64,000 nucleotides of DNA from an uncultured bacterium (GCA_963729625.1 CAVSOU010000005.1:12302-76301), one strand, 5' to 3'; positions 9,766 through 63,952 are shown, counted from the first letter of the stretch. Numbers and translations are program-made. The notes: a model not told the origin generated them from the letters alone.

Positions 9766-12348
9766 GTGAGTTTGCTAAGTCGCAGTACTGCTCGCTGCTG
9801 ATCAGCGGATGCCGTTGGCGCTGTTCCCTGTGCTGGGCGTCTTCGCCAATTCTGCCTGCGCCTAGTGCTATACATCTGGCCCGTCGCTGCCCAGTGCCGT
9901 TGATCGCATGCGCAACGTGGAGATGCAGGTGCCCCTGCGCGTCTACACCCGCGACGGCGGCCTGATCGCCCAGATCGGCGAGCAGCGGCGCATCCCGGTG
10001 ACCTTCGACAGATCCCCGCCGCTGGTCCAGCACGCCTTCCTGGCGGCCGAGGACGACCGCTTCTTCCAGCACCACGGCATCGACTGACCGGGCGTGCTGC
10101 GCGCCATGGCGGTGGACCTGATCTCCGGCGACCGCGCCCAGGGCGCCAGCACCATCACCATGCAGGCCGCGCGCAACATGTTCCTCACGCTCGACAAGAC
10201 CTGACGCCGCAAGCTCCAGGAAGTCTTCGTCACCTACCGCATGGAAAGCGAGTTCACCAAGCAGGAGATCCTGGCGACCTACCTGAACGTGATCTTCTTC
10301 GGGCAGCGCGCCTACGGCGTCGCGGCAGCCGCCGAGACCTACTTCGGCAAGAGCCCTCGACCAGCTGACGGTGTCGGAGGCCGCGACCCTCGCCGGCATC
10401 ATCCAGGCGCCCTCGCGCTACAACCCCATCGATCAACCCCCAGCTGGCCAATGCCCGCCGCACCTACGTGCTGCGGCGCATGCTGGAGCTGGGCTACATC
10501 GACGCCGAGGCCGCACGGCGGCCAACGCCGAGCCGATCGACGCCCGCGGCTACGCCCCCCTGTTCGACGTGGAGGCCCCGTACGTGGCGGAAATGGCCCG
10601 CCAGGAGCTGGTGCGCCGGCGTATGGCCCCGACGGCCGTGAACTGCCGGCTACAAGGTCTACACGACCATCGACGGGCGCCTGCAGACCGCCGCCAACCG
10701 CGCGCTGCGATCGGCCTGATCGAATACGACCGCCGCCACGGCTATCGCGGGGCGAGTCGAGCACGCGACCCTGCCACCGAATCTCGAGCCGGCTCGCCCT
10801 GGACCAGCTGCTCTCCAAGCACGAGCCGGTCGGGCATCCTGCAGCCGGCCGTGGTCGCTCTCGGTGGCACCGACCGTCCGCGCGGGTCTACATCCGCGGC
10901 ATCGGGCACCGCCCAGATCGACTGGGACGGCATGGCCTGGGCCCGCACCGCTGGTCAACGGGCGCCTGGGCGGCTGCCGAAGAAGGCCGGTGACGTGCTC
11001 GCCCGCGGCGACGTCGTCTACGTGGTCACCGACCGGCACGGCAATGCCCAGCTTGCCCAGATCCCGGAGGCGCAGGTCGGCGCTGGTGGCGATGGACCCC
11101 GACGACGGCGCCGTGGTCGCCCTGGTCGGCGGCTTCGACTACTACAGCAACCAGTTCAACCGCGTGACGCAGGCCAAACGCCAGCCGGGCTCCGGCTTCA
11201 AGCCCTTCCTGTACTCCGCGGCGCTCGACAACGGCTTCACACCCGCCTCGATCATCCTGGACACGCCGATCGTGATCGAAGGCAACGGGATCGAGGGCGC
11301 CTGGCGCCCGCAGGACTTCGAACGGGAATTCGGCGGCCCGACCCGGATGCGCGAGGCGCTGGTGGAGTCGCTGAACCTGGTGTCGATCCGCATCCTGCGC
11401 GACCTGGGCACCGCGACCGCGATCGACTACATGACGCGCTTTGGCTTTGAGAAGGCGGCACTGCCCGACAACCTGACGCTGGCCCTCGGCACGACGCAGG
11501 CGACGCCGCTGCAGATGGTTACCGGCTACGCGACCTTCGCCAACGGTGGCTACAAGGTCGACGCCCTACCTGATCGAGCGGATCGAGAACTCCGCCGGCA
11601 AGGTGCTCTTCCAGGCCGCACCCGCCGTGGTCTGCCGCGAGTGCGAGAGCGCCGCAAGCTCCGCTGCGGTGCTGGAGGCCGCAGCGGCCCCTGCAACCGA
11701 CCGGGGGAGGCCGCGCCGCTCACGCTGCCGCCGCTGCCGCCGACCCCCTCGCCTGAGCTCATCGCCGCGCGCAACGCCGATGCTCCGGCGGGACTTCAGG
11801 CCCTGGCGGCACGCTCTGCGTCGGCATCGCTCCTCAGGCCTGAGCGCATCGCGCCGCGGGTGATCACGCCGCAGAACGACTATCTCATGGTCGACATGAT
11901 GGCCGACGTGATTCGCCGCGGTACCGGCCACGGCGCCATGGTGCTGGGACGCAAGGATCTGGCCGGCAAGACCGGCACGACAAACCAGGTTCGCGACACC
12001 TGGTTCAATGGCTTCAACACCAGCCTCGTCAGCACCGTGTGGGTCGGCTATGACATCGAGCAGCCGCTGGGTGAGACCGAGCAGGGCGCGCGTACGGCGC
12101 TGCCGATCTGGGTACACTTCATGCGCGAGGCCTTGAAGGGCGTGCCCGAGAAGGTGCGACCGATGCCGCCGGGCATCGTGCAGCTGCACGTCTCCTCCCG
12201 CACCGGGGCGATTGCCAACGCCAGTGACCCCGACGCGATCACTGAAGTCTTCATGATCACGCATCTGCCTGCAGGGGTCCGTGCCGGATCGGCAGATTCG
12301 CCCACGCCGCCCCCGCCGCAGCAAGGCACGGGCGAGGGCATCTTCTAG
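9766..12348 (+). pseudogene. mrcA: penicillin-binding protein 1A (bifunctional glycosyltransferase/transpeptidase), multiple frameshifts plus two apparent in-frame TGA codons; start approximate
   Basis: GT51 motifs FLAAEDDRFFQHHGID, GASTITMQAARNMFL, RMESEFTKQEILATYLNVIFFGQRAYGVAAAAETYFGK, EAATLAGIIQAPSRYNP. Transpeptidase motifs ALVAMDPDDGAVVALVGGFDYYSNQFNRVTQAKRQPGSGFKPFLY and GKTGTTNQVRDTWFNGF. Divergent from pilM as in many proteobacteria. Confidence 0.85.
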
Positions 12349-12359
12349 AGACCAGAGAC

Positions 12360-12993
12360 ATGGGCAAGAAGCCTCCGACGCGCGCGGGACCATCTGCGCG
12401 CCGCCATCGCGCAGGAGTCCGCGCGGCTCATGGCCGAGCACGGTATCCGCGACTTCGGCGTGGCCAAGCGCAAGGCCGCCGAGCGTTTCGGCGTTACCGA
12501 CGGCCCGCTGCTGCCCCGTAACACCGAGATCGAGGCGGCGCTGCAGTCCTACCAACGTCTGTTTGGCCGGGGTAGCCACGGGCAGAACCTGGAACGCCTG
12601 CGCCGCGCCGCGATCAAGGCGATGAAGCTGCTCGCAGCCTTCGAGCCGCGACTCGTGGGCCCGGTCCTGTCCGGTACCGCGACCGAGCATACGGACGTGC
12701 AGCTGCACCTGTTCTCCGACAGCCCGGAAGCCGTCTACATCAGCCTCATGGACCGCCAGCTGCCGCACGAGGTGATCGACCGGCGCGTGAAGATGCAGGC
12801 CGACCGGCAGATCACCGTGCCGGGCCTGCGATTCGCGCTCGGCGACGCGACGGTGGAGGCCCTGGTGTTCCCGAGCGACGGCATCCGCCAGGCCCCCATC
12901 AGCCCGGTGGATGGGAAACCGATGCGCCGCGCCAGCGCCGCTGAAATCGACGCCTTGCTGGATAGGGCGGGTGATGTGAATTACGCCTCATGA
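12360..12993 (+). pseudogene. conserved hypothetical protein (possible nucleotidyltransferase fold); one frameshift near codon 9
   Basis: ATG at 12360 (MGKKPPTRA...) joins the 187-aa ORF 12430-12993 (MAEHGIRDFGVAKRKAAERFGV...VGPVLSGTATEHTDVQLHLFSD...) only after a 1-nt frame change near 12385. Confidence 0.55.
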
Positions 12994-13151
12994 CGCCCCC
13001 AAATGGACCGAAGCCCGCACGGGGTAGTGGCGGCTGCGCGTTTGTTCACATTTTGCGCGGCAGCATAGGGGGTTAGGCAGGTCATTGAAGTACCATATTT
13101 GCAGCGGTCGCTGACCTGCCTGTCGCATCTTAATTTGGCCTGGGTCCTCCA

Positions 13152-16100
13152 ATGATTTCGAAAGAACAACGCGGCGTGGTAGTGGATCTTTGGAAAGAGA
13201 TTCTCAGTCTCACCGAGATTGATCTGGACCATGCATTCGCGGATCTAGGGGGTACCTCCCCTGGCGGCCAATCAGTTCGTTGCCCAGTTGGCGAGCCGCA
13301 CTGGGATCACCATTCCGGTCATCCGGGTCTTCGAATACCCAACGCTACGATCACTGCTGCACTACCTCAGCGAGGGTGCGACCGCAGCAACGGCCACACC
13401 CACACCACGTCGCCGTCACAAGACTTCTCCCGCGGGAGAGGTTCGCACGGATCACGACATCGCGATCGTCGGCATGGCCTGTCGGTTTCCCGGCGCGCAG
13501 AACCTCACCGAATTCTGGCAAAACCTTCTCGAAGGCCGCGACACCATCCGCGCTCTGTCGGACCAGGAACTCAGTCCCGAAGTGCCCCAGGAAGTGCGCA
13601 ACGACCCGCGCTACGTGCGCGCCGCCGGACTGATCGACCAACCGTATGCGATGGATGCCGCCTTCTTCGACATCAAGCCGATGGAGGCGCGGCTGACCGA
13701 CCCGCAGCAGCGCGTGCTGCTTGAGACAAGCTGGGACGCGCTCGAAAACGCCGGGCACGGGCCAGGCAGCTACGCCGGTCGCACCGCCGTCTTCGCAGGT
13801 ACCGAAGACAATACCTATTACAAGACTGAAATCAGCCCCTTTCCAGAAGCCGAAGCACGCGCCGGCCGTTTTTCGGTTATGACCGGCAACGAGAAGGACT
13901 TCTCGGCGATGCGCGTTGCGCACAAGCTCGACCTTCGCGGTCCAGCGGTGAGCGTCAACACGGCGTGTTCGACTTCGCTCGTAGCGGTCGTCATGGCCTG
14001 CAAGAGCCTGCGCAGCGGCGAGTGCGACCTTGCCCTGGCCGGAGGGGCCGCTGTCCACTTTCCAACCCCCGAGGGTTACTACTTCCAGGAAGGCGGGGTG
14101 TTCAGTTCCGACGGCCACTGCCGACCGTTTGACCAGGACGCACAGGGAACTGTCTTCACCGACGGCGTGGGCGTTGTCGTGCTCAAGCGCGTCGAGGACG
14201 CAATTCGCGACCGCAACACGATCTTTGCGGTGATTCGTGGCGGAGCCGTCAATAGCGATGGCGCCAACAGGGCCTCGTTTTCGGCCCCGAGTGTGAGCGG
14301 GCAGGCCAGTTGCATCGCTGAGGCCCTGCGTGATGCAGGCGTCGATCCGGCGACGATCGGCTACGTGGAAGCACACGGCACGGCAACGCCGGTGGGCGAC
14401 CCCATCGAGCTCGAAGGGTTACGGCAAGCCTTTGGCAAGCAGTCCGGGCGACGGCAGTACTGCGGGCTGGGTTCGGTCAAGAGCAATATCGGTCACACCA
14501 CGACGGCAGCTGGCGTCGCCGGCTTGATCAAAGCCGCCCTGGCATTGAAGAACGGCGTGATTCCGCCCTCGCTGCACTACCGACGCCCCAATCCGGCGCT
14601 CGATATCGAGAATTCGCCGTTTTACGTTGTCGATCGCAAAACCGATTGGCCTCCCGGGCCAGCGCCGCGCCGCGCCGGCGTCAGTTCCTTTGGTATCGGT
14701 GGAACCAACTCGCACGTCGTGCTTCAGGAGCCGCCGGCGATGTCGCCAGCACCCAGCCCGGCCATCGATCGGCCGTTTGAGATCCTGCCGGTTTCCGCGC
14801 GCACCGCCACGCAGCGTGACGCGCTGCTACAGTCGCTCTCGAGCCGAGATCCAACTCCTTGCGCGGGATCTGGCCTACACATTGCAGCATGGTCGCTCAC
14901 GTTTCCCGCGCCGGGGTGCGGCGATCCGCCTGCCGCGATGGCCCGGCGTTGACACGCAAATTAAGGCGACCCAGGCCGCACTGGACGAACCCAGCCTCGT
15001 TCTTCTGTTCCCTGGCCAAGGATCGCAATACATCAAGATGGGACACAGCCTGTATGGCGAGTTTCCCGAATTCCGTCAGACATTCGACCCATGCTGCGAC
15101 TGCTGAGTCAGGAGACTTGGTTTTGACTTCAAGGCCTTTATTTTCGACGAGGCGAACAAGGAAACGCTCGAAAACACGCGCTATACGCAGCCGGCGCTGT
15201 TCGCGATCGAAATTTCGATCGGCCGCATGCTGCTCGACTGGGGCTTGCGGCCGCAATTGATGGTTGGCCACAGCATCGGCGAATTCGCCGCGGCGCACCT
15301 GGCCGGCGTCTTCTGCGCTGGAGGACGGGATCAAGATGATCGCGGCGCGCGGCAGACTGATGGCCGATTGCCGCAAGGACGCATGCTTTCGGCGCGAGGC
15401 CCCCAGGACACCATGCTCGCCGCGGCCGGCGAGACGGTAGACGTTGCGTCGGTAAACGGTCCGGTCCACAGCGTGCTTGCCGGTGCCGACGAGCTGATCG
15501 CGCGGGTGCAAGAGCGCCTGGAGTCCGCGGGCATCTCGTGTCGGCCGCTGCATACCTCGCATGCGTTTCACTCGGCGATGATGACGCCGGTCATCGAGCC
15601 TTTCCTCGAAATTGTGCGCAGCGTGGAACTGCACGCACCGGACCGGACCATCGTGTCCACGGTTACCGGCGAGGTGCTCACGGCAGCCAACGCCACGGAT
15701 CCGATGTACTGGGCCAATCACCTGCGGTCGACCGTGAACTTCAGCGGCGCCGTGTTCAAGGCCCTGGACCTGGGCGGTAACATCTTCCTGGAATGCGGCC
15801 CGCGCACAACCCTAACGACGCTCGCCGTACAGCACTTTGCCAAGTCCCAGAACGCATCGGCGTCGCACGTTGCCATTTCCATGCTCGGCGACAATCCCGA
15901 GATGCAGACGGAACTGGGCGGCATTGGCAGTGCCTTGGCACGACTGTGGTGTGCCGGCGTGGTGCTGCAGTGGGACAGAATCTGGTCGCCGGGCCGCAAG
16001 GTTCCGCTGGTTACCGGCTACCCTTTCAATCGCAAGAACTTCCTATTCTCGGAAGGCAGGCAGCCGGAGCTGCGCTCTGCCCCAATACCGCATAACGCCC

Positions 16101-17218
16101 CTGCTCATGCACCGAGCCTGCAACGGATGGCCACCGCGCCAGCTGCCACCGGAACGGCGGAGGCAGCCCTGTCTGCCGCGCCTGTCATGGAACAGCGCGC
16201 GCTATTGCTTGCGCAGCTTGAGGCGCTGTTTAGCGGGTACGCTGGCGTTTCGGTATCCGCCAGCCAGGCGACCTTCGTTGAGCTGGGATTCGACTCACTG
16301 GTGTTGGTGCAGATCGGCGTGGAGATCAGCAAGACTTTCGGTGTTTCCATCGCGTTGCGCGACCTGATGGAACGCCTGAATACGCTACCGCTACTCGCAG
16401 GCCACCTCCTTGAAACGTCTTCGCCCGACAGGCTGCCGCGGGAGCTGCGCGCCCCTTCCGCCCCGATTGCTCCTGCTTACCAGCCGTCTCCCGCGCCACA
16501 TTCGCCGGCCTACGGTGCTGCGCCGGTGCCCATTACTGCCGAGCCCGTGCCCGGCACCGCCACCCAGGTTCGCGAGCTACTCCTTGCCGGCCTGGAAAGG
16601 CTTTTTGCCGCGCACTCCGGACTTGATATCCAGGCCAGTCCGTCAACATTTCTGGAGCTCGGACTCGATTCCCTGGTCTTGGTGCAGATTGGCGTGGAGA
16701 TCAGCAAGACTTTCGGTGTTTCCATTGCCTTGCGTGACTTGATGGCGCGTCTCAACAGCCTGCCGGCCCTGGCGGACCACATCCTCTCCTCTGCGCCACC
16801 TGACCGACTGCCACGCGTGGCCCGGCCGATGCCGATATCCGCAATGGCGCCGCCCTCTCCTGTTCCTGCAATGCCTGCATCCATTGCCGCGGCACCGACC
16901 CTTAGCTCGCAGGCGGTGGCTGCGGCACTGGCGGCGGCGCCCGCCGATGCTTTGCAGGTCATGCAGCAGCAACTTCGGGCCATGCAGGCTTCCATTGCCG
17001 AGCAGCTGACGCAGCTTGAAAAGATGACTCCCCTGTTGCAGGACGCCGCCCGAGCAGCCCGGAAGCCCGATGCGCCTGCCCCGTCAGCGCCCGCGCTGAT
17101 TCGTGCACGGCATGCACAGCCTCCACAGGAGGGAGCCTTCAGGGCGGCAGACAACGCGGGTGACAAGTGGGTCGCCTATGACGTGAATCGTCGCCGCTAC
17201 GAACTGATCACACGGTAG
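13152..17218 (+). pseudogene. type I polyketide synthase module: carrier(T0)-KS-AT(malonyl type)-ACP-ACP plus a Pro/Ala-rich C-terminal tail; frame disrupted as sequenced (near 13260, 14845, 15100 and 15310-15365)
   Basis: T0: DLGGTS...FEYPTLRSLLHYL. KS: DIAIVGMACRFPGA, VNTACSTSLVAV, EAHGTATPVGDPIE, GSVKSNIGHTTTAAG. AT: LLFPGQGSQY, GHSIGEFAAAHLAG, HTSHAFHSAMM (HAFH = malonyl type). Two ACPs: ELGFDSLVLVQ and ELGLDSLVLVQ. No KR, DH or ER motif seen. Confidence 0.85.
16270..16750 (+). repeat. tandem duplication of the ACP-coding unit (about 100 nt cores at approx 16275-16375 and 16650-16750, roughly 90 percent identical)
   Basis: Both copies encode (F)DSLVLVQIGVEISKTFGVSIALRDLM(E/A)RLN(T/S)LP. 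The nucleotide strings ggtgcagat(c/t)ggcgtggagatcagcaagactttcggtgtttccat are almost identical. Confidence 0.9.
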
Positions 17219-17228
17219 CGCAACCATC

Positions 17229-20200
17229 GTGCCAGATGAGTCCCGTGCGAATGCGGCCGAAGGTATGGATTTAGCGGCGAAACACTTCGGCGCAGAGATC
17301 CGTGTCGCATCCTCAGCCGCGCAGCGAGAGATATTCAGTGCATCCTGCTGCAGCCCCGATGCCTCGCTCGCCTACAACCAGTCCATCTCGCTGTTCTTCA
17401 GCGATCGGCCGGATCCGGATGCCCTGTATTCAGCGCTGCTGAATCTGCTGCATCGCCATGAAGCGTTGCGGGGCCACTTCAGCACCGACGGCATGTCATT
17501 CATCATCCGCGAACGCATAGCGTTCGAGTTGCCGCTGATCGAGCTGGCGGGCGAAACGGCGCTGGAGCGCAAGGCCAGCTACGACCGAGCCGTGCAGGAT
17601 GAGCTGGGACATGTATTCAACCTGACAGAAGGTCCGCTGTTTCGCGCCCTTCTCTTCAGTCGCGCCCCCCAGGGATGGGTTCTGCTCTTCAACTGCCATC
17701 ATGCCGTGGTCGACGGCTGGTCGTTGAACATCATCCTGCGCGAGCTGCCGGCGCTGTACAGCGACCTTGTGAGCGATCGTAGCGTTGCCAGCCTCCCTTC
17801 GCCGGACTCCTTCGCGGCACATCTGGCCTATGCCGTAGCGCAGGAACGCAAGCTTGGCCCGGCCGCATACCGCTATTGGCGGCAGACCTTTGCGGATGGG
17901 GTTCCGGTACTGGATTTGCCACTGGATCGAATTCGGCCCAACACACGCACCTACCAGTCGAGGCGGGAAGACTACAAAGTTGAGCGCTCGGTTTACGAGA
18001 ACCTCAAGCGCGCCGGTGCCAAGGGGGGAACCACTCAATTCGGCACCTTGATGGCCGTATACGCGCTGTATCTGGCGCGGATCTCCGGTCAGCAGGACTT
18101 TGTCATCGGGGTACCTGCGTTCGGACAGGTCACCGCCGGCAAGGGAAATCTCCTGGGACACGACGCGCGGCTTATCCCTGTTCGCTGCGTGATCGAGGAA
18201 CAGGACAACTTCACGGATTTTGCGGCGCGGTTGCGGCGGCGCTTTCTGGAGGCCTACGACCATCAGTGGGTGAGCATACCTGGCCTGATCCGAGAACTCG
18301 GCGTGGATGTAGATCGTGCCCGCGCGCCCCTGGTATCGGCGATCTTCGGCTTCGACCCCGGTATGGAGACGCCATTTCGGTTTGGCGATCTGACCGCCAG
18401 GCACCATTACAACGAGCGGCTTGGCGAGACCTTTGAGATTCAGCTCAACGCCGTCGTGGAAGATGGTGAGTTGATTCTGGAGTGGAGTTATAACGCCGCG
18501 CTGTTCGACCGTGAGCAAATGCATGCGCGCCTCATGCAGTTTGAACATCTCATGCGCGCCATCGCTGAGCAGCCCGATTGCAAGGTGCTCAGTCTGCCGC
18601 TGCTGCCTGGACCTCAAGTCCGGGAAATGGAGATGCTGCTCAATCAGACCGCCTTTCCTTTCGAACGGGAGTTGTGTGTCGACCAATTGGTTGAGCGCAG
18701 CGTCGACGCGCATCCGCAGGCCATTGCTGTGGAGTTCGGGGACCAGCGGCTCAGTTACCGGCAGCTGTGGGACAGATCAGGCCAGGTCGCCAATGCGCTG
18801 GCCTCCGCAGGTGCGGGTGCCCGTTCGCTGGTTGGCGTGATGCTGGAGCGATCCGCGGATCTAGTAGCCGTTCTTCTGGGCGTGTGGCGCGCTGGCGCGG
18901 CCTTTGTTCCGCTGGATCCGGCCTATCCCGCGGATCGCCTGGACTACATGGTCGAGCATTCCGGAATGCGCGTGCTTCTCACCGAACGTGCGCTGGAACG
19001 CCCCGAGGATGCCCAGCGGCTTAAGTGCATCTACGCCAGTGAGATTGCGCCTGAGACCCCGTCGACCTTCCCGTGGCGCGCCGGACGCAACTCGGAAGAT
19101 CGCGCCTACGTAATCTACACCTCAGGATCCACGGGGAAGCCGAAGGGTGTACAGGTACCGCATCGCTCGCTCAACAACTTCCTGACTTCCATGCGTACTC
19201 GGGAGCCTGGATTTGCGCCCGCAGGACGCCTGTTGGCGGTTACAACACTCTCGTTCGATATTGCGGAGCTTGAGCTGTGGCTGCCGCTGGTGTCTGGGGG
19301 TACGACAGTCATCGCTGACCGCGCCACTGCCTTTGACGGCGCGGCTCTGATTCGATTGCTCAGTTCGGCGCGAATCACCGTACTGCAAGCCACGCCCGCA
19401 ACCTGGCGTCTGCTCCTCTATTCAGGCTGGGCAGGCGATCGTGATCTAACCGCACTGTGCGGGGGCGAAGCGCTTCCGCGCGACCTTGCTGACGCGTTGC
19501 TTGAGCGCGTAGGCATACTTTGGAACGTCTACGGACCTACGGAAACAACCGTGTGGTCCACCATTGATCGCGTCGGACCTGGGGCCATCGCCGTTGGGAA
19601 GCCCATTGGCAACACGCAGACGTACATTCTCAACGGCAACAATGAGTGGGTGCCGCGGGGAAGCGTCGGTGAACTGTGGATCGGCGGGGACGGCGTTACC
19701 GCAGGCTACCTCGGGCGCGAGGATTTGACGCGTGAGCGCTTCCTGCCCAATGTGTTTACCGGCCACGGCCTGATGTACCGAACTGGCGATTTGGTGCGGT
19801 TGCGTCTTGACGGCCGGTTGGAATACATCGGCCGAAATGACTTCCAGGTGAAGGTCCGTGGTTACCGGATCGAGCTCGGCGAGGTCCAACACACCCTCGC
19901 GCGCCTACCAAAGATCAGACAGTGCATAGTCGTGGTAAAGGAACGTGAGCCTGGCGACAGCCATCTTGTCGCCTACTACACGCTGCACAGCGGCCGACAG
20001 ACTGACGCCACAGAGCTGAAGGATGAACTGCGCCAGAGCCTGCCGGACTACATGATCCCTGGCTGGTTCGTAGAGCTTGAGAGCCTTCCCCTTACGGATA
20101 ATGGCAAGATCAACGTCAAGGCTTTACCGGATCCGTTCGCATCGGCCCCAGATAACTCAGCCGAATCTGACAAAGGGCTTCACCTCGTCGAGGACATTCT

Positions 20201-56417: not shown

Positions 56418-57161
56418 CTATTCCTTGATCCGCAGCAGCGCCGCGGTGGTGTTGTCGCTGCCCAGGCCGCCGCGTTGCACCGCGAGCCGGGCCAGCATTT
56501 CCAGCGACGGCGTCAACGGTCCATCCGTCGACAGCGCGCTGGTGATGTCCTCGTCAGTCAGGTTCGCCCAGAAACCATCTGTGCAGACCAGCAGGATGTC
56601 GCCGGGCTGCACGCGCTGCAGCCGCCCGATGCTCATCTCCGGCAGCATCGGGTCACCGCCGATGCAGACCTCGACGAAGTTGCGCAGCGGATGGGTCAGC
56701 GCCTGCTCGGCGCTGATGAGCCCTTCCTGCAGTAACAGCTCCACGTGGCTGTGGTCGCGCGTGCGCCGGTGCACCCGGCCGCCACGCAGCAGGTAGATGC
56801 GCGAGTCACCCATGTGCCCGAACCACGCCGTGCCCTCCTGCACCAGGCAGACGGCAACCGTGGCCCGCGGCCGCCGCTCGATCGCAACGCCTGCGCCCAG
56901 CAGGGTGACCTCCTCGTGCGCCCGGCCCAGCGCCAGGTGCAGGAAGCCCATCGGATCCAGCAGCGGCTGCAGCGGCTGGCCGAAACGCTCGACCAGGACC
57001 TTGGCGCCCAGCTCCGCGGCGCGCTCCCCGTGCGCATGCCCGCCCATGCCATCCAGCACCACCAGCAGCGCGGCGTGCGGCGACACGACCGCGGTCGCGC
57101 GGTCCTGATTGTCCTCGCGCGCTCCCAGCAGGCTGACTTCGGCGTAATCGACGCGCAACAT
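56418..57161 (-). CDS. PP2C-family Ser/Thr protein phosphatase
   Basis: [56 protein letters not shown]. The track ORF extends to 57197, but MLRVDY at 57161 is the likelier start. Confidence 0.85.
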
Positions 57162-57301
57162 CCTTCTCCCGCGCGACCTGATCCGCGCGATGGGCAACAG
57201 CCTTGGGGGCCGGTGCGATTGGGCTAAACTGGCCGCGCTTTATAACACCCGGGCACCAGTACCGGAAATTCCTACATTCACGACCAGACTTAACCACACC
57301 C

Positions 57302-58177
57302 ATGATCGCCAGCATGACGGGCTTTGCCCGCCGCGAAGCAGCCCTTGCCCAGGGCACCCTGGTCTGCGAGCTGCGCAGCGTCAACCACCGCTACCTTGAG
57401 GCCGGCCTGCGGCTCCCGGAGGAGCTGAGGAGCCTGGAGGGGGAGTTCCGCGCCCAGCTGCAACGCGACCTGCGCCGTGGCAAGGTCGACTGCACCTTCA
57501 CCTACCGCAGCGCAGGCCCGTCGGACCGCAAGCTGGAGCTCGACCCCGCCCTGCTGGCCCAGCTCACCGAGCGGCTGGCCCAGGTCGCCGCGGCGGTCCC
57601 TGCGGGCGGCGCCCAGACGAGCGTGGACCTGGTGGAGCTGCTGCGCTTCCCCGGGGTGCTGCGCGAGGCGGCCAGCGACAATGAGCCCCTGCTCAAGGCC
57701 GCCCGCACGCTCTTTGGCGAGGCGATCCGGGACTTGTCGGCGATGCGCTCGAGCGAGGGCGGCCGCCTGGCCGAACTGATCCTCACCCGCTGCACGCAGC
57801 TGGAGGAGCTGGTCGGGCGCGTGCGCACGCGTCTGCCTGAGGTGCACGCGCTGATCCGCGCCCGCTTCAACGAGCGCCTGGGGGAGCTGCGCAAGGAGCT
57901 GGATCCGGATCGCCTGGAGCAGGAGGTCGCCTTGAGCCTGCAGCGCCTGGACGTGGCGGAGGAGATGGATCGCCTCGCCGGCCACCTGACCGAGACGCGC
58001 AAGATCATCGCAAGTCCCGAGGCCGCCGGGCGCAGGCTGGATTTCCTCATGCAGGAGTTCAACCGCGAGGCCAACACGCTCTCCTCCAAGTCCCAGGACC
58101 TGGAGACCACGCGCGCCGCGGTCGACATGAAGGTGCTGATCGAACAGATGCGCGAGCAGGTGCAAAATTTGGAGTGA
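57302..58177 (+). CDS. yicC: YicC-family stress-induced protein
   Basis: MIASMTGFARRE......CELRSVNHRYLE...EGGRL...RLDVAEEMDRLAGHL...GRRLDFLMQEFNREANTLSSKS...KVLIEQMREQVQNLE. Confidence 0.9.
   Translation: MIASMTGFARREAALAQGTLVCELRSVNHRYLEAGLRLPEELRSLEGEFRAQLQRDLRRGKVDCTFTYRSAGPSDRKLELDPALLAQLTERLAQVAAAVPAGGAQTSVDLVELLRFPGVLREAASDNEPLLKAARTLFGEAIRDLSAMRSSEGGRLAELILTRCTQLEELVGRVRTRLPEVHALIRARFNERLGELRKELDPDRLEQEVALSLQRLDVAEEMDRLAGHLTETRKIIASPEAAGRRLDFLMQEFNREANTLSSKSQDLETTRAAVDMKVLIEQMREQVQNLE
58157..58175 (+). repeat. copy 1 of the 19-nt direct repeat caggtgcaaaatttggagt (the authentic last codons of yicC)
   Basis: Exact string; its last base is the first base of the yicC TGA stop. Confidence 0.95.
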
Positions 58178-58384
58178 TCTGCGGCGGAAACCGCCCGCAG
58201 ACGCCTGCGGTGGTGGCGCACGGACAGGGGCGTCACGATATTGCCCAGAGCACCAACGGCTGGTCGATCGCGTATTTACGCAACTCGCGCCTGAGTAAAA
58301 GTGCTGAACGGGTAGCTACGCTGCCATCGCTGGCTGCGCCGCGCTGAACTAGGATCAAGCGGGGTTGACGGGGGCGCAGCGACT

Positions 58385-59017
58385 ATGGACAGACTCAGGG
58401 TCGGTATCCTGATCTTCGACGGCGTCGAGGTGCTGGATTTTTGTGGCCCGTTTGAAGTGCTATCCGTGACTCGTCTCGATGAGGCCACCCGACGCGAGCA
58501 ACCCTCACCCTTCGAAGTCTCGCTGCTTGCCGAGACGGATCAACCGGTGGTGGCCACTGGCGGACTGCGCGTGCTGGCCGACTACCAGCTCGCCAACTGC
58601 CCGCCCTTGGACGTGCTGCTGGTGCCCGGCGGCTGGGGGACCCGCAGGGAAATGAACAAACACCGTCTGCTCGAGTGGATCGCGCAGCGTGGCGCACAGG
58701 CCCGACTGCTGACCTCGGTGTGCACCGGCGCCCTGTTGCTCGGCTAGGCTGGCCTCTTGGACGGCAAGCGCGCGACGACGCATTGGCAGGCCCTGAGCCT
58801 GAAGCAGAAGCGGTTTCCCAATACCTGCGTCGAGCACAATCTGCACGTGGTCGAGGACGGTAATCTATTAACGTCGGCGGGCATTTCGGCCGGCATCGAT
58901 ATGGCGCTGCGTGTCGTCTGGCGCTACTGCGGTGAGTCCGTGGCTCGGGCGACCGCGCGCTATATGGAGTATCCGTTCCCGGAGAACAATGCGCGCCGCA
59001 TCGCGCTGGACGAGTGA
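58385..59017 (+). pseudogene. DJ-1/PfpI (class I glutamine amidotransferase-like) family protein with an in-frame TAG at 58745-58747
   Basis: RVGILIFDGVEVLDFCGPFEVL..., DVLLVPGGWG, LTSVCTGALLLG*AGLLDGKRATTHW, LLTSAGISAGIDMAL. The two ORFs 58385-58747 and 58757-59017 are in the same frame. Confidence 0.75.
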
Positions 59018-59085
59018 ACTGTTCCTGACCACCGGCCCGTTCCAAGGGGCTTCCAAGCGGTCACGAGCCGAACAAGTTCCGGGGC

Positions 59086-59364
59086 CTACCGTGACCGCAA
59101 TTCCTGGCGCAACACGTCACGCAGCCTACGCACCGTAAGCGGGGCGTCGTCCGCATTCATGGCAGCGCGCAGCGTGTCGTTGATGAGCGTCTGGTAGTTG
59201 CCGCCGCCCTTCACTTGGGCACGGAACCACGCCAAGACATCCGCGTCGATGCGGATCGTGATGCGCTCCTTGCTCTCGTTCTCCTTCTGGATGCGGGCAA
59301 GGTGGGGAACATCCTTCGCCCGCTTTGCACGGCTGAAATCAAGCTCGGGCATTTCCGTCTTCAT
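59086..59364 (-). CDS. brnA: BrnA-type antitoxin (ribbon-helix-helix/CopG-like)
   Basis: MKTEMPELDFSRAKRAKDVPHLARIQKE.....ITIRIDADVLAWFRAQVKGGGNYQTLINDTLR. The ATG overlaps the stop of the upstream brnT-like gene (ATGA). Confidence 0.7.
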   Translation of the reverse strand: MKTEMPELDFSRAKRAKDVPHLARIQKENESKERITIRIDADVLAWFRAQVKGGGNYQTLINDTLRAAMNADDAPLTVRRLRDVLRQELRSR

Positions 59365-59636
59365 GGCAGCTCCTCGTATTGACGCGCTGCGCCTGCGCTC
59401 GCCTTGCGGGCCGAAATGATGCGCGTAACATCCGGGCCGCGTTCCGTCCACACCACATACAGCAGCCGATCAGAGAAGGCTCTGCCCAGCGTGACAAACC
59501 GGGCTTAATCTTCGGCCGTCGGGTCATCACGTGTCAGACCGAGCGGGTCTTCGAGCGCACCCACAGCATCCGCGAAATCCACCTCGTGCTTGCAAATGTT
59601 CTCCTGCCGCTTGGCTTCGTCCCACTCGTTGCGCAT
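59361..59636 (-). pseudogene. brnT: BrnT-type toxin (DUF497) with an in-frame TAA
   Basis: MRNEWDEAKRQENICKHEVDFADAVGALEDPLGLTRDDPTAED*ARFVTLGRAFSDRLLYVVWTERGPDVTRIISARKASAGAARQYEE. Confidence 0.65.
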
Positions 59637-59760
59637 AGTCTATTGTATGCACGTCGTGCATACAGTCAATACCGCTACGCTTCACCGGGAGATGTATAGC
59701 TGGCCCTAAAACGCGTCAAAGTTTTTATCATTATCAACGCGATACGAGCACCGTAAATTG

Positions 59761-59779
59761 CAGGTGCAAAATTTGGAGT
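59761..59779 (+). repeat. copy 2 of the 19-nt repeat caggtgcaaaatttggagt
   Basis: Exact string. The roughly 30 nt upstream (ttatcaaCgcgAtacgAgcaccGTaaattG) are about 75-80 percent identical to the region upstream of copy 3. Confidence 0.95.
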
Positions 59780-59865
59780 CAATTTGAGGTAACAGCTGGA
59801 GAGCCAACATCCGGTTACTCCGGATGGTCCTGTACGGTAAAATGCCGTATCTTCTGGAGGCGCCC

Positions 59866-60141
59866 ATGCCCACCACCACCGCCCGTTTCGATCTCAAACT
59901 GGATTCCGGCGAAAAGGAAATCATCGCGCGGGCAGCTGCCCTCATGGGAACAACCATGGCCGGCTTTGTGCGAGCGGCAGCCAAGGAGAAAGCGCAGACA
60001 TTGCTCGAACGTGAAACCCGCGTTGTACTCAGCGAACGCGATTTCGCGCGTTTTGCAGCGGCCGTCAGCGGACCTTTCGAACCAAACGCGCACTTGTCGC
60101 GGGCGCTGAAGGAGGCACGGCGGAAAGTGCGTCGTGCTTGA
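59866..60141 (+). CDS. tacA: DUF1778/TacA-type antitoxin (RHH)
   Basis: MPTTTARFDLKLDSGEKEIIARAAALMGTTMAGFVRAAAKEKAQTLLERETRVVLSERDFARF. Overlaps the downstream GNAT gene by 8 nt. Confidence 0.75.
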   Translation: MPTTTARFDLKLDSGEKEIIARAAALMGTTMAGFVRAAAKEKAQTLLERETRVVLSERDFARFAAAVSGPFEPNAHLSRALKEARRKVRRA

Positions 60142-60619
60142 GGAACGCGCATTCGATATCGGTGTACATGACCGCGGCGGTTTCGATTGCGGTGTTCCCG
60201 AACTCAACAATTACTTGAGACGCTTCGCGGAGCAGCATCGCCGCAAAGGTATCAGCACACCGTTCGTGCTGGTGGATGTCGATACGCCGCACGAGATCTT
60301 GGGCTACTACTGCCTTAGCGCAGCACAAGTAGACGCGACAGAATTGGGGGAAAGTGCCCGCAGGAAACTGCCACGTTATCCGGTGCCGTGCTTTCGTCTC
60401 GGTCGGCTGGCGGTGCACAAGCGCCTGCGCGGGCAGGGCATAGGGAAACTGCTGCTAGCCTGCGCCATCGATCGCTGCCTGAAGGCACGGAGCGACGTGG
60501 CAGCCTACGCGCTGATTGTCGATGCCAAGGATGAAAACGCCAAGCAGTTCTACGAGCGCTACGGATTCGCCGTGCTTGTCAGCGCGCCGATGACACTCTA
60601 CCTGGGGCTTGGCCGATGA
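60134..60619 (+). CDS. tacT: GNAT-family acetyltransferase toxin (TacT-type)
   Basis: [16 protein letters not shown]..., [35 protein letters not shown] (acetyl-CoA binding R/Q-x-x-G-x-G), [16 protein letters not shown]. Confidence 0.8.
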
Positions 60620-61509
60620 TGGACGTGGACGGGCTCATCGCCTCGATCATCCGCGACGAGGATCGCGTGCCACGTGAAGTTATCGAAGAGTGCGCACGTT
60701 GGGGACCCGCGATGGTCGAAGCCTTGGACCGAATCGTCGGTCCCGCAGCGGACTGGAGTTCCTGTGCCAGTGATGGCCACTGGTGGCTGCGGCTGCACGC
60801 GGCGTTCATTCTCGGCCTGATGGACGATACAGAGTCAGGCCGCCTGCTCGCACACCTGATGCGACGGCTTGCGGCCAATGAAGACGAGAACATCGAAGAC
60901 TGGCTGGCCGGCTACTGGCCTGCCCTGTTCCGCAACAAGCCCGAGGAAGTTCTTCCGGACATCGAAGCCATTGCATGGACTGACTTCGCACAACCCTACT
61001 TCCGTGTGCATGTGCTGGAAGTTTTGCTGGCAGCGGCTCTGCGACGAGGCCCCGGGGAACTCGATGCACTCCTTGCACACATAGCGGAGTGGATCGCGGC
61101 CGCACCGGATCAGGAGGAGCGCGCGCTGACTGCCAACATCCTGCTGGATTTTCCGCGCTCCGCCCACCGAGCCTTGCTGAGTGATATGGCGGCACGGCAG
61201 AAGGGCATGTTCGGCTTGTTTGACGAATCCGATGTCGAATGCTCGTATGCCAAGGGCGACCAACCCGGCTGGTTGCGCTTCGAGGATCCCTGGAGGTTTT
61301 ATTCACCTGATCAGATCGACGCCCGACAAAAACGCTGGGCCGAGGAGGATGAGAGGCGCTCGCGGAACGCTGTCGCCGAAGCCGCAGGGATCGACGAATC
61401 CCTTTACGAGCAGGAGCCGTATCTGCGCAATACGCTCAAAGTGGGTCGCAACGATCCGTGCCCGTGTGGCAGTGGCAAGAAATACAAAAAATGCTTGAGC
61501 GGCGTGTAG
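60616..61509 (+). CDS. SEC-C-motif protein (DUF1186-like N-terminal domain)
   Basis: 297-aa intact ORF ending ...[18 protein letters not shown]. The start overlaps the tacT stop (ATGA). Confidence 0.75.
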
Positions 61510-61582
61510 CTGGCGGTGCAGCTATTATCGGATGCCGACCATTTCCGTAAATTTATCAATGCGCTACGCGCACCAGAAATTC

Positions 61583-61601
61583 CAGGTGCAAAATTTGGAG
61601 T
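61583..61601 (+). repeat. copy 3 of the 19-nt repeat caggtgcaaaatttggagt
   Basis: Exact string followed by ag (TAG), so the local frame reads MRYAHQKFQVQNLE*, a degenerate YicC C-terminus. Confidence 0.95.
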
Positions 61602-62022
61602 AGTTAGCATAGCGAACTACTTCCAGCACCCTGACCTGCCGTCTCTTTACCGCACTGAATTCATGCGGAGAATGGGCTCGTCGTCGCAACAATCGTCTGC
61701 TCAAGGCGCCCTGCAGACAACACGAGTATCAGGGCGATCCACCCCGAAACACTCTGGTCGCATTGTCGACGTTGAGTCCGGAGCTGACTGTGCGCTAGGT
61801 CAACCCACACTCAACTAATATTTGTATAAGAAGGAAAGGTGTGTTTGCGCCGATTGACTCTCCGGCGTGGCGACTGCGACGGCGACTTCGGAGCGTGGTG
61901 AGTCGCCCGCAAGAAGAATGGAGGTGGCCCCATGGACATCCCTTCGTCCTCTTGCCGGGGCCTTGTGCCGGCCCCGTGCAACCCCCTGATGGCCAAGCCC
62001 CGGGCGGGGCAGGCTCTGCGCC

Positions 62023-62802
62023 TCAGCCCTTGCAGGGGTGCGGCGCCCACTTGGAGCCGTCGGGCTCCTTGCGAAAATGCGAGCTGGTCATGAACTGGCG
62101 CTGCAGGTATTGCGGGTCGTCGACCAGCGTCGTGACCACGAACCACTGACTGCCATCGGCGACCGGGAACGTGTCGTAGTACTCGGTGATCTTCGCGTTC
62201 TCGCTGTAGGGCACGCCATTACGTCGCAGCCAGCCTGCCGTGTGGTTATCGGTCACCACGTGCAGCGAACCGTTCGGTGGGAGCCTGCTCGGGTCGGCGG
62301 CCGGGCCAGCCAACAAGTCGGTTGGGTCGACGGAGTATTCCCAGTTCGCAAGCGAGTTGCCCTGCAGCGTGCGCGGACCGGCCTTGATGTCGGCCTTGTC
62401 AAAGTTCAGCACGCGCGTCTGCTGGCCCCAGTCGGACTCGATCTTCAGCGTCTGGTCGTCGACCCAGGTGATGTGCAGGCGCGTGGGCATGCGCAGCAGG
62501 TTGCCGACGCCGTAGGCCTTGCACGAGCCGTCGTTGGCGTCCGTCCAGGTGTCGGCCTGCTTCTTGCCCTCGGGGTTGAGCGGCACGCTCTGGTAGTCGC
62601 CCTTGGCCGGCGTGACCATGCGGTAACGCCAGTCCTCGTTGACGATCGAGACCCAGTAGCCGGCCAGGTCGATCGGGGCTGCAACCTTCGGGGCCGGCGG
62701 CGGGCCGGTCGGACCGCGCGGGGCCTGCTGCGCAGTGGCCATCTGCCCCAGCGTAAGCAGTGCCACCGCGAGGGTGATGCTCTTAACGGCGCTGATCTTC
62801 AT
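62023..62802 (-). CDS. secreted protein of unknown function
   Basis: MKISAVKSITLAVALLTLGQMATAQQ signal peptide followed by 230 aa of non-repetitive sequence. The track ORF extends upstream, but that part overlaps the MBL gene and looks non-coding. Confidence 0.65.
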   Translation of the reverse strand: MKISAVKSITLAVALLTLGQMATAQQAPRGPTGPPPAPKVAAPIDLAGYWVSIVNEDWRYRMVTPAKGDYQSVPLNPEGKKQADTWTDANDGSCKAYGVGNLLRMPTRLHITWVDDQTLKIESDWGQQTRVLNFDKADIKAGPRTLQGNSLANWEYSVDPTDLLAGPAADPSRLPPNGSLHVVTDNHTAGWLRRNGVPYSENAKITEYYDTFPVADGSQWFVVTTLVDDPQYLQRQFMTSSHFRKEPDGSKWAPHPCKG

Positions 62803-62875
62803 GAGATGCTTTCTCCAGGACTGTTCGTTCAGCCGTGCGCTGCCTGGGCCCGGGCCCCGCGGCGGCGCCGGGTGC

Positions 62876-63952
62876 TTACTTCTTGCCCTTCGGGGCAGGC
62901 CTGAGCGAGTTGTAGATGGCTTCGATGAACTTGTCGGTCGTCCAGAAGCCCGTGGTCGCGCCGAATCGACCGTCGTAGTCGGACGAAGGCTTGGCGGCCT
63001 TGACCTGGTCGAGGGTCTTGCCGGCCTTGATGAGCACCGCGACGCGGTCACGGATGATCGTGAGCATATCGCGGTATTCGACCAGGTCGGACTGGTCGCC
63101 GATGCGGCCGTGGCCCGGGATGATCAGCGTGCCGCCTTCCTGCTGGTGGTCGGGAACCGCGTAGTCGATGATGTCGTTCACCGCAGCCAGCACGCCATTG
63201 ATGTTGCCGCCATTGGCGGTGTCGATCACCGGGTACATGTCGGTGAAGTAGAGGTCGCCGGTCGCCACCACGTCGGAGCGCCGGAAGCTGACCCAGTAGT
63301 CGCCATCGGTGTGCGCGTTCTTCGGGTGCACCATCTGCACGGCCTCGCCGTTGAAGTGCAGGCTGTAGATGGGCTCGAGGTGCGTCTCGGAAGGCCACAA
63401 CTCGCGGTCGGCCTTGAAGCCGCCCGGGCCCTTCGCGTCGGGCTCGGTCATGTAGATCATCACCGTCTCGTGCGCCATGACAGTCGCGCCGGTCGGGATA
63501 TTGCCGCGATCGCGCACCACGTTGCCGTCGAGGATGGTGTCACCGGCCTTGCGGATCACCTCGTTGCCGCCGGTGTGGTCGGCATGCAGGTGGGTGTTGA
63601 TCACGTAACGGATCGGCTTGTCGCCGGCGAGCTTCTTGATCGCCGCGAGCAGCTGCTCGGCGAGCGGGCGGATGCCGGTGTCGACCACCAACACGCCTTC
63701 ATCACCGAGCTGCACGACCACGTTCGAGGGCTCGCCCGTCATCGGCCAGACGTTGCCGGCGACGTGGTAGGGCACGATCTCGACGGCCGGGCGGGCCGCA
63801 GGCGCGGCGCCCGCGGGAGTGGCGGGCTCGGCCGCGAGGGCCGTGCCACCGGCCAGGGCCGCGACGAGGCCAAGGAGGCTCAGCGCCGAAGCCTTGCGAT
63901 TGCCGTGCATGCTGCACTCCATACCAGTATTGATTGCGTTGGATCGGGTCAT
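62876..63952 (-). CDS. secreted metallo-beta-lactamase-fold hydrolase
   Basis: Signal peptide ...ASALSLLGLVAALAGGTALA, VLVVDTG, YVINTHLHADHTGGN (HxHxDH), AHTDGD, IIPGHG. The true start is probably the MHG... codon near 63910. Confidence 0.85.
   Translation of the reverse strand: MTRSNAINTGMECSMHGNRKASALSLLGLVAALAGGTALAAEPATPAGAAPAARPAVEIVPYHVAGNVWPMTGEPSNVVVQLGDEGVLVVDTGIRPLAEQLLAAIKKLAGDKPIRYVINTHLHADHTGGNEVIRKAGDTILDGNVVRDRGNIPTGATVMAHETVMIYMTEPDAKGPGGFKADRELWPSETHLEPIYSLHFNGEAVQMVHPKNAHTDGDYWVSFRRSDVVATGDLYFTDMYPVIDTANGGNINGVLAAVNDIIDYAVPDHQQEGGTLIIPGHGRIGDQSDLVEYRDMLTIIRDRVAVLIKAGKTLDQVKAAKPSSDYDGRFGATTGFWTTDKFIEAIYNSLRPAPKGKK

Follow-up and report, generated by a model that had tools for sequence, protein, structure and literature searches.

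Integrase-less islets at the 3' end of yicC in an uncultured Steroidobacteraceae-like bacterium: a probable tandem array of cis-mobilizable elements

The 3' end of yicC has been published as the attachment site (attB) of mobilizable islands (PMC8409611, PMC5704250, PMC8978831). The yicC-specific islands described include MGIVflInd1, MGIVchUSA1, MGIVchMoz6, MGIVmi1, IEEcoMOD1 and Shewanella GI21/GISpuPO1; MGIVchUSA1 is listed with two toxin-antitoxin (TA) systems and GI21 with hipAB beside attR (PMC5704250, PMC8409611, PMC8978831). Cis-mobilizable elements (CIMEs) arise by decay and then by tandem accretion, in which integration is followed by the later entry of a further element into the attachment (att) site (PMC5704250). 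Both CIMEs and tandem accretion have been described for elements of Streptococcus thermophilus related to ICESt1 and ICESt3 (Pavlovic 2004 and Bellanger 2011, as cited in PMC5704250). Here, a stretch of 64,000 nucleotides from an uncultured bacterium was analysed (GCA_963729625.1 CAVSOU010000005.1:12302-76301; the whole stretch is hereafter called the window). The genomes closest to the host are those of uncultured Steroidobacteraceae-like Gammaproteobacteria. In the window, yicC is followed by two small gene islets, delimited by three copies of its own 3' end. This region is probably a tandem array of two integrase-less CIME-type elements, inserted in an attachment site that corresponds to the last ~20 bp of yicC.

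Core repeat and attachment sites at the yicC end

The target gene yicC (57302..58177, plus strand) belongs to the YicC/YloC endoribonuclease family (PF03755 and PF08340; TIGR00255 full-length, 276 bits). The core repeat CAGGTGCAAAATTTGGAGT was found in three exact copies on the plus strand, at 58157-58175, 59761-59779 and 61583-61601, with start-to-start distances of 1604 nt and 1822 nt. No fourth match with up to 3 mismatches was detected in the 64-kb window, and none arose in 100 shuffles. These counts bear out the earlier note on this DNA, which had described a 19-mer in three exact copies bounding a 1.6-kb and a 1.8-kb islet. Copy 1 provides the six C-terminal codons of yicC, the final base of the repeat being the first base of the TGA stop, and marks an attL-type junction, with the yicC arm on one side of the core and the left end of islet 1 on the other. 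Copy 2 lies at a hybrid junction, where the core joins the P arm of islet 1 to the left end of islet 2, and copy 3 at an attR-type junction. Copies 1 and 2 have 20 nt in common, counted from the G at -1, and between copies 2 and 3 the similarity extends over 49 nt (59731-59779 vs 61553-61601; 88% identity).

The terminal codons of this yicC (CAA AAT TTG GAG TGA) are AT-rich and atypical of an otherwise very GC-rich gene; relatives without islands end in CAG AAC ATC GAG. The reading frame is restored at the 3' end, and direct repeats are present at both ends of the array. In two island-bearing relatives (L009 and L043; compared loci are given by L numbers) the terminal codon plus stop reads GAA TAG at attL vs GAG TGA at attR, which indicates that the island supplies the new yicC end. 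In the window, the TAG that follows copy 3 is probably the original stop of yicC. The GC content is 0.50-0.63 over 58050-61950, vs ~0.65-0.74 on the upstream side, yicC included, and 0.63-0.73 downstream. The order of the array was recovered at 99.7% identity in a separate 5.5-kb JGI contig (L001), and the portion with TacAT, SEC-C and the downstream sequence also in L146, a Logan contig from a different run and the same organism, which rules out an assembly artefact.

A second copy of the yicC end was sought 3' of the gene in each of 80 related loci. Such a repeat was observed 1-8 kb downstream in eight of them (L003, L009, L017, L020, L024, L042, L043 and L051), and the islands of the relatives are flanked by a 20-30-nt repeat of this kind. 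In five (L009, L017, L024, L043 and L051) the island opens with a P4-type tyrosine integrase of 414-427 aa, located ~180-250 bp past the yicC stop. The two integrases that were scanned for domains, those of L009 and L051, contain Arm-DNA-bind_3, Phage_int_M and Phage_integrase. An integrase directly after yicC was also found in L014, L015, L029, L033 and L068 (44% identity), which brings the total to 10 loci, and both att sites are in view in half of these. In the tandem array of L020 the first unit retains only integrase residues 156-267; this locus represents an intermediate state.

The window itself was searched with five yicC-linked integrases (tblastn) and with a profile hidden Markov model (HMM) built from six, on the six-frame translation at E<=10, and no integrase was found anywhere in its 64 kb. 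When domains were assigned to the open reading frames (ORFs) of the islets with Pfam, no recombinase or relaxase domain was detected in any of them. Pfam likewise gave no excisionase/recombination directionality factor (RDF) or mobilisation domain in these ORFs; no oriT search was made. The relaxase domain PF03432 was found only in the larger related island of L136. The earlier statement that neither islet encodes a recombinase thus agrees with the Pfam, tblastn and HMM results, and its proposal to look for recombinases next to further copies of the repeat is answered in related genomes by the P4-type integrase directly after yicC in the 10 loci.

The attachment sites of the integrase-bearing islands have a common layout. 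In the closely related ones, the interval between the core and int holds three or four direct GTAGCT repeats with a spacing of 11-13 nt, ~110-150 nt past the stop; in L017 there are two. All right-hand junctions show two GTAGCT at about -85 to -60 and either ATCAA or TTCAAnnnnTTA ~30 nt before the core. This right-arm layout was observed in L009, L020, L043, L051, L135 and L136, and also in L085, L102, L110, L115 and L118. Copies 2 and 3 of the window have the same order of elements as the integrase-bearing islands (GTAGCT, ATCAA, core). The P arm at the right end of islet 1 (59674..59760, plus strand) contains a degenerate arm-type repeat, GATGTATAGCTGG, and a motif resembling a site for integration host factor (IHF), TTATCAACGCGATA, ~29 nt before the core. 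That of islet 2 (61503..61582, plus strand) contains the arm-type repeats GTGTAGCTGGCGGTGCAGCT, with GTAGCT at 61506, and the IHF-like motif TTATCAATGCGCTA. The ATCAA-type motif resembles the IHF consensus WATCAANNNNTTR and may be read as an IHF-like site. The ~30 nt upstream of copies 2 and 3 had been taken for degenerate YicC C-termini. This assignment has to be given up, since the shared GTAGCT/ATCAA layout identifies the stretch as the conserved right (P) arm that is common to integrase-bearing islands.

A promoter-like sequence on the minus strand, TTTACG-16-GATAAT, was observed in both P arms (59730-59757 and 61524-61551), oriented inwards from the right end of the islet. The promoter-like pair of islet 1 faces the brnTA operon. 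It may merely reflect the AT-rich IHF-like region.

According to the mechanism proposed here, a family of P4-type tyrosine integrases would insert elements at the yicC 3' end. The N-terminal arm-binding domain of the integrase would recognise GTAGCT on both attP arms, and strand exchange would take place inside the core, a stretch of 19-25 bp overlapping the final codons of yicC. With the crossover inside this core, each integration would rebuild the gene end and leave a direct repeat. Copy 1 would then be attL, copy 2 a hybrid junction and copy 3 attR. Each islet would have retained its right arm (arm repeats, IHF-like site and core) and lost the integrase gene together with the left-arm array, and would move only with the integrase of a related island. 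This helper island could either adjoin the islets, the composite being excised at the outer sites, or act in trans. The TA pairs probably help the islets to persist. The binding of GTAGCT by the integrase, the involvement of IHF, the position of the crossover and any mobilisability of the islets at present are inferred. The successive site-specific insertions at the yicC 3' end put forward in the earlier note are supported by the integrase found at the same site in relatives, the shared att layout and the integrase-less units found elsewhere. As in structurally defined CIMEs, the array combines three cores, att arms like those of integrase-bearing islands, the absence of its own integration and transfer genes, and autonomous relatives at the same site. 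The islets do not classify as autonomous yicC-specific islands, as they contain no integrase, RDF or mobilisation genes.

It was also considered whether the repeats could have arisen without site-specific recombination, that is, by local duplication of the yicC end, by homologous recombination or as a repetitive extragenic palindromic (REP)-like repeat. One related locus, L042, does show a longer duplication of the yicC end (>=50 nt) flanking a 1-kb insert, and the difference between the window and L147, described below, requires at least one event outside the core. A REP element or bacterial interspersed mosaic element would be recognised by many scattered intergenic copies. Here only three copies were found in 64 kb at <=3 mismatches, all of them at the yicC locus, and copies 2 and 3 are preceded by the conserved arm of integrase-bearing islands, not by yicC sequence. 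A metagenome scan for exact matches to the 19-mer points in the same direction: ~35 of the 53 loci obtained are yicC 3' ends, in hosts whose YicC is 31-60% identical to that of the window. Among these yicC ends, L096 shows the core followed by a P4-type integrase, and a few look native (for example L119, with gmk directly after yicC). The low-GC matches are chance occurrences. No credible further core copies (<=4 mismatches) were detected in the 53 loci. An origin of the repeats without site-specific recombination is thus very unlikely, and the REP-like alternative that the earlier note had named found no support.

Another explanation would be an integron-like or Xer/dif-type cassette array, with capture by an integron integrase at attC-like hairpins or by XerCD at dif-like sites. 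The small, promoter-proximal, TA-rich units are arranged head to tail, each ending in a conserved site, which gives them a superficial likeness to chromosomal integrons and to arrays of integrative mobile elements exploiting Xer (IMEX). Neither intI nor attI is present, however. The repeat regions lack attC-like hairpins and fold no better than shuffles (copy 2, z = -0.7), and the conserved arm consists of direct GTAGCT repeats, as in attP sites of the lambda/P4 type. Moreover, the site lies inside a coding gene and is not a terminus dif site, and relatives carry a dedicated P4-type integrase at the same place. Such an array would be a highly improbable account of the locus.

Cargo of the islets and its occurrence in other genomes

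Islet 1 starts with a non-coding left end (58176..58384, plus strand) that is 85.5% identical to L147 from the first base past the core. Homologous sequence directly after the core of the copy-1 junction was found in both L147 and L148. The left end contains a GC-rich hairpin, CTGCGGCGG-aaa-CCGCCCGCAG, just 3' of the yicC stop, and one GTAGCT at 58312-58317, ~135 nt past the stop and near the position of the array in integrase-bearing islands. A 57-aa ORF across the yicC stop (58174-58347) is called as a gene in L001; it is probably spurious, because it has no family match and covers this non-coding end.

The first gene of islet 1 is a DJ-1/PfpI pseudogene (58385..59017, plus strand), with PF01965 on both halves and an in-frame TAG at 58745-58747. 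Intact homologues with 90-92% amino-acid identity were found past the yicC cores of L147 and L149. On the minus strand follow an intact BrnA antitoxin (59086..59364; PF14384, E=3e-17; 92.1% nt identity to L147) and a BrnT toxin pseudogene (59361..59636), which has an in-frame TAA at 59505-59507; PF04365 was detected on the 43-aa fragment in L001, and the gene is intact in L147 (89 aa). A single stop codon therefore breaks each of DJ-1/PfpI and BrnT, and the antitoxin remains intact. The independent contig L001 has the two stops as well. The gene content proposed earlier for islet 1 was correct as to the DJ-1/PfpI pseudogene and BrnA, and had to be amended as to BrnT, which is not intact.

In islet 2, the predicted TacA, TacT and SEC-C proteins were all recovered as Pfam matches. 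The TacA-type antitoxin (59866..60141, plus strand; PF08681, E=6e-19) has its longest ORF start at 59824. Its end is overlapped by an intact GNAT acetyltransferase, a TacT-type toxin (60134..60619, plus strand; PF13508, PF13673 and PF00583). The third gene (60616..61509, plus strand) encodes a SEC-C-motif protein of 297 aa (PF02810), for which PADLOC and NCBIfam gave no function besides the C-terminal motif. As adjacent antitoxin/toxin pairs with family domains, BrnTA and TacAT are type II modules by domain, BrnT being inactivated by its stop.

The same units were found at the yicC end of other genomes. The locus L147 (GCA_037975565.1) has the order rph-PP2C-yicC, followed by four cores and three integrase-less units (9781-18397). 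Its unit A consists of DJ-1 and BrnAT and begins at the left boundary seen in the window. Unit B, of 5 kb, encodes an archaeo-eukaryotic primase (AEP)-helicase, Abi_2 and AbiEi, and unit C a SEC-C fragment, an HNH protein and a DUF5615/DUF433 pair. In L149 (GCA_030038755.1) a PIN/MazE unit is inserted between yicC and the DJ-1 unit. In L135, from the metagenome-assembled genome (MAG) GCA_049964755.1, a 2.2-kb integrase-less unit with an AAA_14/DUF4143 ATPase and a SEC-C protein lies between two cores; the contig of P0004 shows the same order of genes. No integrase is encoded in the arrays of L147 and L149 or in the L135 unit. These findings, together with the eight loci with repeats, confirmed the alternative cargo and the presence/absence polymorphism that had been predicted for the yicC end. 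In L147, the fourth core is followed by GAGGTCCAGGCATTTCCAGAGACGTCC, a sequence similar to the left arm of integrase-bearing islands, although no integrase gene comes after it.

Homologues of the islet 2 SEC-C protein with 72-83% identity were found in L135 and L136-138, in each case encoded by the final gene ahead of the right-hand att site that lies downstream of yicC. In L136-138 this gene ends a large island with a methylase, a ResIII helicase, a relaxase, several TA pairs and a TacAT operon 81% identical to that of the window. Islet 2 is collinear with the right end of the L136-type island, the homology starting 36 nt past core copy 2. The nucleotide identity of TacAT to the operons of L011 and L136 is 80-81%. 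A general link between SEC-C and attR was rejected: distant homologues (59% in Dokdonella, 51% in Povalibacter) are not followed by a yicC-type core, and the link applies to close homologues only.

The identity of the cargo differs markedly from that of the backbone. Between the window and L147 it is 92.9% for DJ-1, 92.1% for BrnA and 85.5% for the post-core non-coding stretch, vs 67.5% for yicC, 64% for PP2C and ~75% for rph. For L135, SEC-C reaches 80.9%, vs 67.9% for yicC, 66% for PP2C and 72.5% for rph, and for L011 the values are 80.2% (TacAT) vs 66.8% (yicC). Cargo identities of 80-93%, far above the 64-75% of the backbone, show that the units moved horizontally, much more recently than the hosts diverged. 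The sequence comparison further suggests that this spread would have occurred with a helper integrase.

Several observations count against a reading of the islets as CIME-type elements. Islet 1 carries two nonsense mutations, which indicate its decay. Only two GTAGCT are present in 58000-62100 (58312 and 61506), and the left-arm array is absent from both islets. The right-arm repeats are partly degenerate, none being perfect at copy 2 and one of two at copy 3. With the left array absent and the right-arm repeats degenerate, the islets may have lost the capacity to excise. Neither excision products nor empty sites nor circular junctions were seen, and the same array is present in all three independent contigs of the organism. 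The view covers 64 kb of the genome, and a helper integrase elsewhere would lie outside it. In addition, the P arm behind DJ-1 and BrnAT differs between the window and L147: the arm of window copy 2 matches that of the third core of L147 (89% over 47 nt). This cannot be produced by a crossover in the core only and calls for a rearrangement outside the core, which was probably a recombination or deletion between the GTAGCT regions of neighbouring P arms.

Much of this would be expected if the islets were dead relics formed in place. Two integrase-bearing islands would have been inserted in turn, each losing its integrase and left arm, and the products would never have been mobile in integrase-less form and would be immobile now. 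The stops in DJ-1/PfpI and BrnT, the missing left-arm GTAGCT arrays with the degenerate right-arm repeats and the uniformity of the three contigs fit this scenario. That such a route of decay exists is shown by L020, whose tandem array contains a truncated integrase, and the collinearity of islet 2 with the right end of the large L136 island, which holds relaxase and restriction genes, is what a left-side deletion predicts. What speaks against dead relics is the DJ-1+BrnAT unit, which is integrase-less in L147 too, at the same site and with the same core-abutting left boundary, and whose cargo is 92-93% identical at a yicC identity of 67.5%. Two hosts are unlikely to have acquired the unit independently and then undergone an identical deletion. 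Furthermore, in every multi-unit array seen (the window, L147 and L149) the units are as a rule integrase-less, and one such unit stands alone in L135. Decay in place is accordingly regarded as unlikely, and CIME-type elements stacked by a related integrase as the probable explanation.

A more far-reaching possibility is that the yicC 3' end of Steroidobacteraceae-like bacteria serves as an integron-like platform that stockpiles integrase-less cassettes of 1-5 kb, mostly with TA or defence functions. Each cassette would bring its own arm-type, IHF-like and core site, and a P4-family integrase encoded elsewhere would insert and shuffle the cassettes in trans and exchange them from one genome to another. 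Arrays would reach up to three units (four cores, as in L147), and the integrase-less state would be the normal functional form and not the result of decay. This idea is considered improbable.

A recurrent cargo protein starting with (M/V)RYWWVNQNQTFRQE was observed beside RhuM/Fic proteins in the islands of L009, L011, L017, L020 and L024. The shortened copy of L009 has no Pfam domain, and the full-length version of L011 shares a C-terminal motif with HNH_2 proteins of related arrays. The protein may be a defence nuclease. Elsewhere in the window, a 152-nt direct repeat was noticed (16259-16410 and 16634-16785; 78% identity, 375 nt apart), which probably represents repeated domains inside a coding region, unrelated to the islets.

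Right flank of the array

Core copy 3 is directly followed on its right by a non-coding module of ~156 nt (61602..61757, plus strand), which is conserved and contains four hairpins. It is 77-92% identical in six other contigs, whose hosts have a YicC less than 60% identical, and a seventh copy is present in L146. The module follows an intact yicC in L117 (6083-6238) and L131 (1288-1443), and a P arm with core in L115 (2947-3098), L085 (245-400), L118 (5932-6087) and L102 (388-543). Its place is in every case right of the final core, and it is therefore read as the probable chromosome-side (B') flank. As to its nature, it may be a yicC 3' untranslated region, a small RNA (sRNA) or a B' core-type site. 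A coding region was rejected, as the variable sites show no codon periodicity (24/22/25). RNAalifold predicted hairpins on both strands, with almost no covariation. A permissive Rfam search of 57000-62600 gave no match for the module or the repeats; the only result was a sub-threshold sRNA match inside the PP2C gene. The module contains no GTAGCT and has no counterpart in the 80 genome loci.

In L117, a partial second copy of the module was observed on the minus strand (5951-6036, model positions 74-153), in tandem directly after the full copy. In L110 (216-980), a P arm and an exact core are followed by ~17 nt of the post-core module and then by a different gene of the DJ-1/PfpI family. A DJ-1-like gene as the first gene past a yicC-type core was thus seen twice, in the window and in L110. 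The L110 gene was not accepted as the same unit, its product being only 29% identical to that of the window.

None of the 80 related genomes has, within 10 kb of its yicC, counterparts of the genes beyond the right end of the array (62023-63952). No exact empty site was definable for this organism.

Relation to known elements

The present locus extends the yicC 3'-end hotspot beyond Vibrio, Shewanella and enterobacteria, to a gammaproteobacterial family of mostly uncultured environmental (soil) bacteria. It also defines the att grammar of an island family: a core of 19-25 bp, GTAGCT on both arms and ATCAA ~30 bp from the core. Tiny integrase-less units with TA or defence genes stack in tandem and are swapped between divergent hosts. 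The locus is also a tractable case for studying how integrase-less elements spread. For the annotation of MAGs this is of practical use, as such islets otherwise pass for ordinary chromosomal genes. The points of interest are the clean att grammar, the recurrent multi-unit integrase-less arrays and the conserved 156-nt module.

Compared with P4-like or CP4-57-type islands, which occupy the 3' ends of tRNA and tmRNA genes, the relatives of the islets encode the same kind of integrase with Arm-DNA-bind_3 (DUF4102) and have int beside the target gene. Arm-type direct repeats on both attP arms and the regeneration of the target 3' end are further common features. The differences are that the target is here a protein-coding gene and that the window contains no integrase.

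The yicC-specific mobilizable genomic islands, or integrative and mobilizable elements, resemble the present system in their integration at the yicC 3' end by a tyrosine recombinase, in their TA cargo and in their composite or tandem structures. They are, in contrast, 20-37 kb in size, with an integrase, an RdfM-like excisionase and mobilisation tied to SXT/R391 or IncC helpers, all of which the islets lack.

Recombinase-less cassettes are also known at the 3' end of rlmH (orfX) in staphylococci. These pseudo-SCC elements (SCC, staphylococcal cassette chromosome) lie between direct repeats of the target end, stacked in tandem next to relatives that encode a recombinase. The recombinases of SCC elements are of the serine type (CcrAB/CcrC), and these elements lack arm-type sites.

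Unlike the CIMEs related to ICESt1 and ICESt3, the islets reside in a Steroidobacteraceae-like Gammaproteobacterium, use another target gene, measure only 1.6-1.8 kb and are TA-rich in the window; mobilisation by a helper is in their case deduced from sequence comparison only. In the remaining features the agreement is close. The genes for integration and transfer are lost, the elements form a head-to-tail stack at a conserved gene's 3' end, and integrase-bearing relatives occupy the same site. The array is a clean but essentially ordinary case of the known stacking and decay of site-specific islands, and it reveals no new mechanism.

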